DNA from: Shigella phage sb3
Length of the DNA: 64,000 nucleotides
Sequence record: PQ666541
Reading direction: 5' to 3' (one strand)
Below are positions 37,955 to 38,704 of the stretch, piece after piece (position 1 is the first letter of the stretch; each line of letters begins with the position of its first letter). The notes beneath the pieces were generated by a model. That model saw only the letters and a list, made by a program, of their open reading frames with translations, did no database searches and had not been told where the DNA came from. Both the position numbers and the translations under genes were made by a program.

Positions 37955-37963
37955 TTGATTATG

Positions 37964-37977
37964 GGGCTTCGGCCCCT
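37964..37977 (+). promoter_or_regulatory. UUCG-tetraloop hairpin GGGGC-UUCG-GCCCC after gene 18
   Basis: Perfect 5-bp GC stem with UUCG loop, 10 nt after the gene 18 stop and ahead of the HNH ORF. Confidence 0.5.
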
Positions 37978-37993
37978 ATTCTCGAGGAAACAA

Positions 37994-38611
37994 GTGATTA
38001 TTTCTAAGTTTGTTAAAGTGAAAATTGTACCATCAAATTTTAAACATTATCAATCAAAGGGTTATAAATTAACACCTCTTGGAGCGGTTAAACATGGATT
38101 TAGGTATTATGAAATTGATGTTAAAGTTGAAGACATTAAAGGTAGTACCGCGTATGTAAAATGCCGTTGCGATAAATGTGGAATTGAATATAACCAACGC
38201 ATTGGAAGAAACACTGATATTTGTCGTGATTGCCGTCATAAAGATAAAATGCGCAATAATTCATATGGTTCCGCGAATAAAGGAAAAACAGTAGAATGTA
38301 TGCATGGCGTAAATCATCCAAGATGGAACCCAAATAAATCTGAAATGCGTGAATATATTTCATTGGTATATAAAGAAACTCGTAAGCATAAGAAAATTTG
38401 GTCAAAATGGCCAAATGCTGATAAAATAGGAGTGTGCGGTACAAAAGGTGCTTACCAACTTGATCATAAGGTATCTATCAAATACGGTTTTGATAATTTA
38501 ATTCCTGCTGAAATAATTGGCGGTATTAATAATTTAGAAATAATCACTTGGGAATCTAACCGAGAAAAGTCAAAAAGAAATAGTGTAGATCTTTGGGATT
38601 TACTAGAATGA
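37994..38611 (+). mobile_element. free-standing HNH-family endonuclease ORF inserted between genes 18 and 19
   Basis: Cys cluster CRCDKCG...CRDCRH and HNH-like QLDHKVS...NNLEIITWESNREK. ORF is open from 37955; start set at GTG 37994 because GAGGA lies 5 nt upstream. I do not recall a gene here in T4. Confidence 0.55.
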
Positions 38612-38618
38612 TTCTAAA

Positions 38619-38636
38619 GGCCTGTTTCGGCAGGCC
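38619..38636 (+). terminator. hairpin after the HNH ORF
   Basis: ggcctg-tttcgg-caggcc. Confidence 0.4.
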
Positions 38637-38637
38637 A

Positions 38638-38704
38638 TATAAATACACTATATCCTTAATTCTTTAATTCTATATGCCCTAGGTTAAACATAGGGATATA
38701 AATA
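38638..38704 (+). promoter_or_regulatory. two late promoters (TATAAATA) upstream of gene 19
   Basis: Exact TATAAATA at 38638-38645 and 38697-38704. Confidence 0.7.

Follow-up and report, generated by a model that had tools for sequence, protein, structure and literature searches.

For free-standing homing endonucleases, the T-even phages serve as the reference system. Their free-standing HNH homing endonucleases are MobA–E, of which MobE has been shown to be active (PMC2790892, PMC2988022). The catalogue of T4 homing endonucleases contains none between genes 18 and 19 (PMC2988022). The sheath and tube genes of LIMEstone1 flank the gene of a 'Hef-like' free-standing endonuclease, F-LimVIII (PMC3296691); enzymes of the Hef type are Vsr-like (PMC3239194).

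We analysed a stretch of 64,000 nucleotides from Shigella phage sb3 (PQ666541; hereafter the window), which is from a Tequatrovirus, a T4-like coliphage. The preliminary description of the window had claimed an extra ORF of about 205 aa between genes 18 and 19 that T4 lacks. This was borne out: in T4, gene 19 starts 116 nt after gene 18 and the spacer contains no ORF (Table 1). The 1.2 kb around the ORF of sb3 is 97–99.3% identical to Ec_YwIITB1, sb1, HY03, pSs-1, RB3 and others. We conclude that this ORF is probably the gene of a free-standing homing-type endonuclease belonging to an uncharacterised His-Me-finger family and located in the 18–19 spacer. Its description as an inserted, mobile-looking and nuclease-like gene is well supported. 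Even in T6 and RB3, both classic phages, the gene is annotated as hypothetical, and a literature search for T6 gp19.1, phrog_5104 and an 18/19 homing endonuclease returned nothing specific and no experimental work. A few GenBank records call the ORF 'homing endonuclease' or 'type II restriction endonuclease', apparently through automatic annotation.

Table 1. Features of the gene 18–19 region, in positions of the window.
Feature	Position	Strand	Basis or remark
Gene 18 (tail sheath, 659 aa), upstream host gene	35975..37954	+	annotated gp18 in near-identical records
37-nt block inside gene 18, 51–87 nt upstream of the insertion point	37867..37903	+	three haplotypes
Inserted segment relative to T4, 656 bp in place of TACGGTGC (8 bp) of T4	37955..38610	+	alignment with T4, T2, RB14, HY01 and EC128 empty sites
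Hairpin 1, GGGGC-UUCG-GCCCC, 9 nt past the gene 18 stop	37963..37976	+	brought by the insert
Shine-Dalgarno GAGG, 6 nt 5' of the GTG start	37984..37987	+	
ORF, 205 aa, GTG start, TGA stop; putative free-standing homing-type endonuclease	37994..38611	+	phrog_5104; RB3_165; allele of T6 'gp19.1'
Cys4 zinc-ribbon (treble-clef-like), N-terminal domain, C59-x2-C62 ... C77-x2-C80	38168..38233	+	
C-terminal nuclease-like domain, residues 100–205	38291..38608	+	
D157-H158	38462..38467	+	invariant
N180	38531..38533	+	invariant
N189..K192 (N189, 38558..38560; K192, 38567..38569)	38558..38569	+	invariant
Hairpin 2, GGCCUGU-UUCG-GCAGGCC, native 18–19 spacer	38619..38636	+	identical in T4, T2, RB14 and HY01 empty sites
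Late promoter TATAAATA, native T4 18–19 spacer	38638..38645	+	
Second late promoter TATAAATA, native, 15 nt before gene 19	38697..38704	+	
Gene 19 (tail tube, 163 aa), downstream host gene	38719..39210	+	ORF calls and annotated records

Junction alignment defined the insertion sharply and upheld the claim that the ORF is an insertion relative to T4. In T4, T2, RB14, HY01 and EC128, the empty site reads TAA-TACGGTGC-ATTCTAAAGG, and the flanks in the window are identical. In full, all aligned empty sites read TAA-TACGGTGC-ATTCTAAAGGCCTGTTTCGGCAGGCC-ATATAAATA. Each boundary is ambiguous by ∼1 nt, and the final A of the ORF's stop codon (TGA, 38609–38611) is native T4 sequence. Of the span first proposed, 37955–38640, the right end lies too far downstream, the insertion stopping at about 38610. 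Because the inserted 656 bp replace only TACGGTGC, the downstream hairpin and both late promoters are native to the T4 18–19 spacer. The Cys4 cluster, the DH...N...N motif, the two hairpins and the two late promoters listed in the preliminary description are all present in the sequence. The inserted element is not bracketed by hairpins of its own: the upstream UUCG hairpin came with the insert, but the downstream one is identical in ORF-less T4. The two promoters do follow the ORF, but they too are identical in ORF-less T4. Hairpin 1 had been placed at 37964–37977, one base to the right of its true position.

Hairpin 1 is identical in RB3, ADUt and T6, and an analogous hairpin separates the sheath stop codon from the ORF in S16, POP12, AS-zj and phiM12. 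Hairpin 2 folds into a 7-bp stem that includes a U-G pair (−12.8 kcal/mol, z = −2.9). The window contains nine UUCG-loop hairpins with a stem of at least 5 bp, compared with 3.4 expected, and the majority are at gene 3' ends. An Rfam scan yielded no family. Hairpin 1 probably replaces the native hairpin at the 3' end of gene 18 and damps read-through into the ORF. The inserted cassette would bring its own copy of the sheath mRNA 3'-end hairpin, which, together with the GTG start, would hold the ORF at a low level of expression.

The start codon at GTG 37994 is likelier than the alternative TTG at 37955, since GAGG stands six bases before it, the PHROG match starts at the residue that it encodes and most homologues start with GTG-ATT-AT. 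The last feature was found in eight of ten compared ORFs: those of the window, RB3, T6, Roth21, S16, VR7, POP12 and ADUt (ADUt from an alignment). No late promoter TATAAATA occurs between 35939, upstream of gene 18, and 38638, and sigma-70-like matches were no commoner than in shuffled sequences. A dedicated ORF promoter was rejected on these grounds. No intrinsic terminator was found, the hairpins having no T-run. The lack of both a late promoter in this interval and a terminator-like T-run points to late expression of the ORF, with transcripts that would start at the late promoter of gene 18 (35939) and read through into it.

The signals preceding the ORF differ in other genera. In Roth21 (2429–2500 of the extracted locus) and VR7 (2434–2500), a sigma-70-like TATAAT box and then a stem-loop precede the ORF, an arrangement resembling the 'promoter-early stem-loop' cassettes that have reportedly been described for T4-type phages. 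In IME540, a late promoter TATAAATA stands immediately before the ATG of the ORF. The expression signals of the ORF therefore vary between genera.

Using a junction-spanning query, we found the site to be occupied in 117 of 495 Tequatrovirus records and empty in ∼378; the empty junction of T4 was matched in 382 records. The gene is thus missing from 76% of Tequatrovirus genomes, whose empty sites are clean and do not differ from one another. Presence and absence are sporadic among genomes that are >98% identical, giving a sharp polymorphism in a spacer between conserved genes. The ORF of the RB3/window type is found in 47 records and the remaining occupied records carry the T6-type allele, which is annotated 'gp19.1' in VR7 by reference to T6.

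The two allele types have in common the 5' leader with its hairpin and the C-terminal 73 codons, which are 90% identical with seven amino acid differences. By contrast, the middle 124 aa, which include the zinc ribbon, have 31% identity between the RB3 and T6 types and are not alignable as DNA. The T6 'gp19.1' allele is accordingly a mosaic (2501–3106 of the extracted T6 locus compared with 37994–38611 of the window). Between T6 and the window, gp18 and gp19 are 99% identical and the ORF is 58% identical; between S16 or Klebsiella phage Roth21 and the window, gp18 is 72–77% identical and the ORF 64–65%. This incongruence, together with the alternative occupants of the site, indicates at the level of pairwise identities, on which both comparisons are based, that the ORF has a history different from that of its neighbours.

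The gene is not peculiar to sb3: its homologues, T6 'gp19.1' among them, are found at this position in several genera. A tblastn search with the ORF matched 239 phage records, of which 232 cover at least 80% of the query, and a profile search retrieved 6295 cluster representatives at E ≤ 1e-3. All 14 full-length homologues that we examined directly follow the sheath gene. These are from the window, RB3, ADUt, T6, Roth21, S16, VR7, POP12, IME540, Bp7, Acj61, phiM12, AS-zj (C-terminal half only) and a metagenomic T4-like contig. They cover Tequatro-, Gelderland-, Gapriver-, Dhaka-, Lasalle- and Emdodecavirus, phages of Klebsiella, Pectobacterium and Aeromonas, and the one metagenomic contig. In phiM12, the gene after the ORF is not the tube gene. 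Both long-term residence at the 18–19 site and repeated invasion must be considered.

Two database matches stand apart. The 32-kb record MG010123.1, which bears the name 'Staphylococcus phage SAJK-IND', shares 98.3% identity with the T4-like coliphage region, ORF included, and is probably mislabelled or contaminated. In Geobacillus virus E3, an unrelated phage, a weak tblastn match (E = 3e-4) to the N-terminal 81 aa only (2501–2752 of the locus) sits in an unannotated 1.5-kb gap.

The strict synteny across very distant phages, phiM12 and AS-zj among them, and the intactness of nearly all copies count against homing. They would also fit the main rival explanation, in which the sheath-tube module has long had, rather than a selfish element, an accessory gene that is passed on vertically and encodes a useful nuclease or DNA-binding protein. 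The protein might act, for instance, on the DNA of the host or of competitors, or in the late processing of DNA. Such a gene would have been lost in T4-like lineages and shuffled by ordinary recombination. The conserved start codon and leader architecture are consistent with this explanation, as is the resemblance of a variant block in gene 18, described below, to sequences of other genera, by which the T4-like state could be derived. We nevertheless consider it unlikely. Three-quarters of the Tequatrovirus genomes do without the gene and have clean empty sites, the similarity of the ORF is incongruent with that of gp18 and gp19, and the site is contested by two alleles whose middle domains have been exchanged. 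Moreover, an unrelated homing endonuclease gene occupies the same junction in LIMEstone1, and relatives of the ORF carry other DNA-binding modules at other loci. In some of these relatives, the C-terminal domain is combined with NUMOD3 modules, a kind characteristic of homing endonucleases, and one NUMOD3-bearing relative lies between the clamp-loader genes gp44 and gp62 in T4-like metagenomic phages. Such a pairing of another specificity module with another locus is what would be expected of modular mobile nucleases.

The encoded protein appears to consist of two domains. The Cys4 cluster is a separate N-terminal zinc-ribbon domain outside the HNH core, and its cysteines are invariant or nearly so in the family alignments. 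The ribbon is presumed to be the DNA-binding or specificity module. Two family consensus sequences scored 23.1 and 22.2 bits against the treble-clef family DUF4379, below the cut-off of 24.5; the window protein gave no DUF4379 match in a Pfam scan, and one of 57 relatives did (1.5e-4). A sequence-profile search of the PDB returned weak zinc-finger and mS66 matches to the N-terminal region only and no nuclease match.

In the C-terminal domain, the sole residues invariant across 57 diverse members of the family are D157, H158, N180, N189 and K192. Their spacing, DH-x21-NL-x7-N-x2-K, is that of the canonical HNH core DH...NLxxLCxxC(H/N)xxK, with D-H, N and then a further N ∼9 residues on, as in an HNH or His-Me finger. 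T185 and S188 occupy the usual positions of the zinc cysteines, and some relatives keep cysteines there. AlphaFold predicted the structure with a pLDDT of 83 at full length and 86 for the C-terminal domain alone. In the models, H158 terminates a strand, N180 immediately precedes the next one and N189 lies in the helix that follows. The best structural matches of the C-terminal domain are HNH nucleases, with low fold scores; a Foldseek search of the PDB with the full-length model found nothing meaningful.

Searches with curated families were largely negative. The window protein had no match at E ≤ 1 to Pfam HNH, HNH_3, HNH_4 or HNH_5. The family consensus matched only HNH_5 among the HNH models (E = 9.8), and three of the 57 distant relatives matched HNH_4 or HNH (E of 3.5e-4 to 3e-3). 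No nuclease family emerged when the protein and two family consensus sequences were scanned against NCBIfam and PADLOC, and the PHROG assignment, phrog_5104, is of 'unknown function'. An alignment by hhalign of the C-terminal profile with two ORFs of Geobacillus virus E2 gave no signal, the one-sequence targets affording low power and their identity with 5h0o being unsure. The designation of the ORF as an HNH-type endonuclease therefore finds support in the H-N-N motif, the predicted beta-beta-alpha unit and the structural matches, but not in the profile search by which it was to be checked. With moderate confidence, we regard the C-terminal domain as a divergent, zinc-less H-N-N His-Me finger.

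The lack of a profile match, the low fold scores and a core without the usual CxxC zinc ligands would also be expected if the protein were a catalytically dead or domesticated His-Me-finger-like nucleic-acid binder, such as a regulator of gene 18, gene 19 or another late function, whose likeness to HNH enzymes is structural only. This seems improbable. The invariant residues of the 57 relatives fall exactly at the catalytic positions D-H, N, N and K, and a regulator would not be expected to occur sporadically. Among known enzymes, I-HmuI exemplifies active H-N-N variants that do without zinc. Finally, a chance ORF or mis-assembly without function, to which only the non-ATG start codon might point, is refuted by conservation: the motifs are conserved in 239 phage records and thousands of metagenomic relatives, and differences between close alleles are mostly synonymous (four against two non-synonymous relative to RB3; 12 against seven relative to the T6 C-terminal part).

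A 37-nt block near the 3' end of gene 18 is polymorphic. Among near-identical Tequatrovirus genomes, its haplotypes differ by 12–13 substitutions spread over 13 codons; apart from a single T-to-Q change in the T6-like haplotype, every one of them is synonymous. Only a few sites differ in the 400 nt around the block. The motif that the block encodes, PARSINYITLNFVA, is conserved throughout the T4 superfamily, out to phiM12 and AS-zj. The RB3-like haplotype is identical to Klebsiella phage sequence over 26 nt. TATAAATT is present in the variant block and absent from the window, which carries the T4-like haplotype despite having the ORF. Of the 117 occupied genomes, 114 have a variant block and three the T4-like block (sb1, Ec_YwIITB1 and, partly, sb2); among the ∼378 empty genomes, the block is variant in ∼128 and T4-like in ∼250. 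In raw record counts that ignore kinship, this corresponds to an odds ratio of 74 between variant block and occupancy.

Judged by sequence, the block is a candidate recognition or cleavage site or a candidate co-conversion scar. It may be the site that the endonuclease recognizes and cleaves, in which case the variants would be resistant alleles. The combination of ORF and T4-like block in the window would then be awkward, as self-cutting would be expected. Alternatively, the enzyme may cut at the junction, a site that the insertion destroys, and the block may merely accompany the ORF in co-conversion; on this view, the window would result from a rare recombination event within the 51-bp interval. 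A role of the block as a simple immunity determinant was rejected, since genomes with the ORF and genomes lacking it were seen for each haplotype and the ORF of the window is itself paired with the T4-like block.

If the ORF encodes a homing endonuclease, its action may be outlined as follows. The zinc ribbon would recognize DNA and the His-Me finger would cut it, with H158 as the general base, N180 bracing the hairpin and N189 holding the metal. In a mixed infection, the enzyme would cut the ORF-less allele at or near gene 18 or the 18–19 junction, and the break would be repaired by recombination from the ORF-bearing genome. Repair would copy the cassette, comprising the hairpin, the Shine-Dalgarno sequence and the ORF, together with flanking markers in gene 18. 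The proposal that the ORF is a free-standing homing endonuclease is favoured by the insertion, the sporadic spread, the incongruent and mosaic alleles, the constant locus behind the sheath gene, the linked block in gene 18, the NUMOD3-bearing relatives at another locus and the use of the junction by F-LimVIII. The missing HNH profile match, the pairing of ORF and T4-like block in the window and the strictness of the synteny over very distant phages, which a useful gene kept vertically would also show, speak against it.

A more far-reaching proposal, which we put forward as a doubtful possibility, is that the gene is the founding, uncharacterised example of a large family of His-Me-finger homing endonucleases, invisible to profiles and with >6000 representatives. 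Its zinc-ribbon branch would have specialised on the DNA encoding PARSINYITLNF, the universal C-terminal motif of the sheath. Block 37867–37903 would then be the recognition or cleavage site under arms-race selection, the RB3 and T6 alleles would be specificity swaps tracking the haplotypes, and the window would represent a rare recombinant beside a sensitive site. Specialisation on PARSINYITLNF-encoding DNA would explain why the gene follows the sheath gene throughout the T4 superfamily.

The occupant of the junction in LIMEstone1 is of a different kind. F-LimVIII is a protein of 596 aa encoded on the opposite strand (8129–9919 of the extracted locus), with weak sub-threshold matches to the Vsr-like family DUF559 (just below the cut-off) and to MTES_1575. 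It also contains DUF7487, which occurs in six of the 57 relatives of the ORF family. The ORF was considered as a Hef-like gene and this was rejected: hhalign gave a probability of 1% for the ORF family against F-LimVIII, Pfam found neither DUF559 nor Vsr in the ORF protein or the family consensus, and the predicted fold is helical plus beta-beta-alpha rather than alpha/beta. As F-LimVIII lies at the same junction and its catalytic domain is unrelated, the sheath-tube junction is a hotspot for unrelated endonuclease families.

Several further loci were noted. In the Dhakaviruses IME540 (3747–4328 of the extracted locus) and Bp7 (3769–4350), another ORF, of 193 aa and with faint similarity to the GIY-YIG enzyme SegE (E = 0.0046), lies between tube gene 19 and portal gene 20; the portal gene of Bp7 is annotated in two pieces. 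In the metagenomic T4-like contig (1–2012), the large terminase appears to be split into Terminase_6N and Terminase_6C, with a 251-aa ORF without a Pfam match between them that may be another mobile insertion. In the window, the ORF at the hoc position (47604–49022, minus strand) has 472 aa; T4 Hoc has 376 aa. No ORF lies between the inh-like gene (49032–49712) and the uvsW-like gene (49763–51274) of the window, near which position T4 presumably has segE.

A homing-type insertion is ordinary for T4-like phages; the family itself is new to study, and the gene has gone unstudied in T6 and RB3 despite the standing of the T-even phages in this field. If the protein is active, it would represent a catalytic family missed by current HNH profiles, and thousands of metagenomic and phage proteins could be annotated. 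It would also mark a new homing site within the most conserved structural operon and provide a natural pair of alleles at a single locus, with a common nuclease domain but different specificity domains, suited to studying the evolution of target specificity. Further, it would explain the local mosaicism at the 3' end of gene 18, which bears on phylogenies and typing based on the tail sheath. If inactive, the gene is one more accessory ORF.

Overall, the locus resembles those of the Mob enzymes: a small gene in a spacer between conserved genes, sporadic among close relatives, with a His-Me-finger-type motif and presumed intronless homing with co-conversion of the flanks. Judged by profiles, domain order and motif, the ORF family appears to differ from Mob in its assignment to PHROG 5104, in matching no HNH or NUMOD profile, in having its nuclease domain C-terminal and a zinc ribbon N-terminal, and in a core without zinc ligands. 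I-HmuI and other H-N-N HNH endonucleases, and the small phage HNH nucleases 5h0o (GVE2) and 4h9d (Gme), are among the closest known systems. Hef and I-Bth0305I (EDxHD, Vsr-like) likewise combine N-terminal DNA-binding modules with a C-terminal nuclease. Different endonuclease genes, segH and mobC in one case and hef and mobE in another, are said by Sandegren et al. (2005) to alternate at one intergenic site of related phages, as do the RB3-type and T6-type alleles here, which have leader and nuclease domain in common. Unlike those pairs, the occupants of the 18–19 site are homologous and differ only in the presumed specificity domain.
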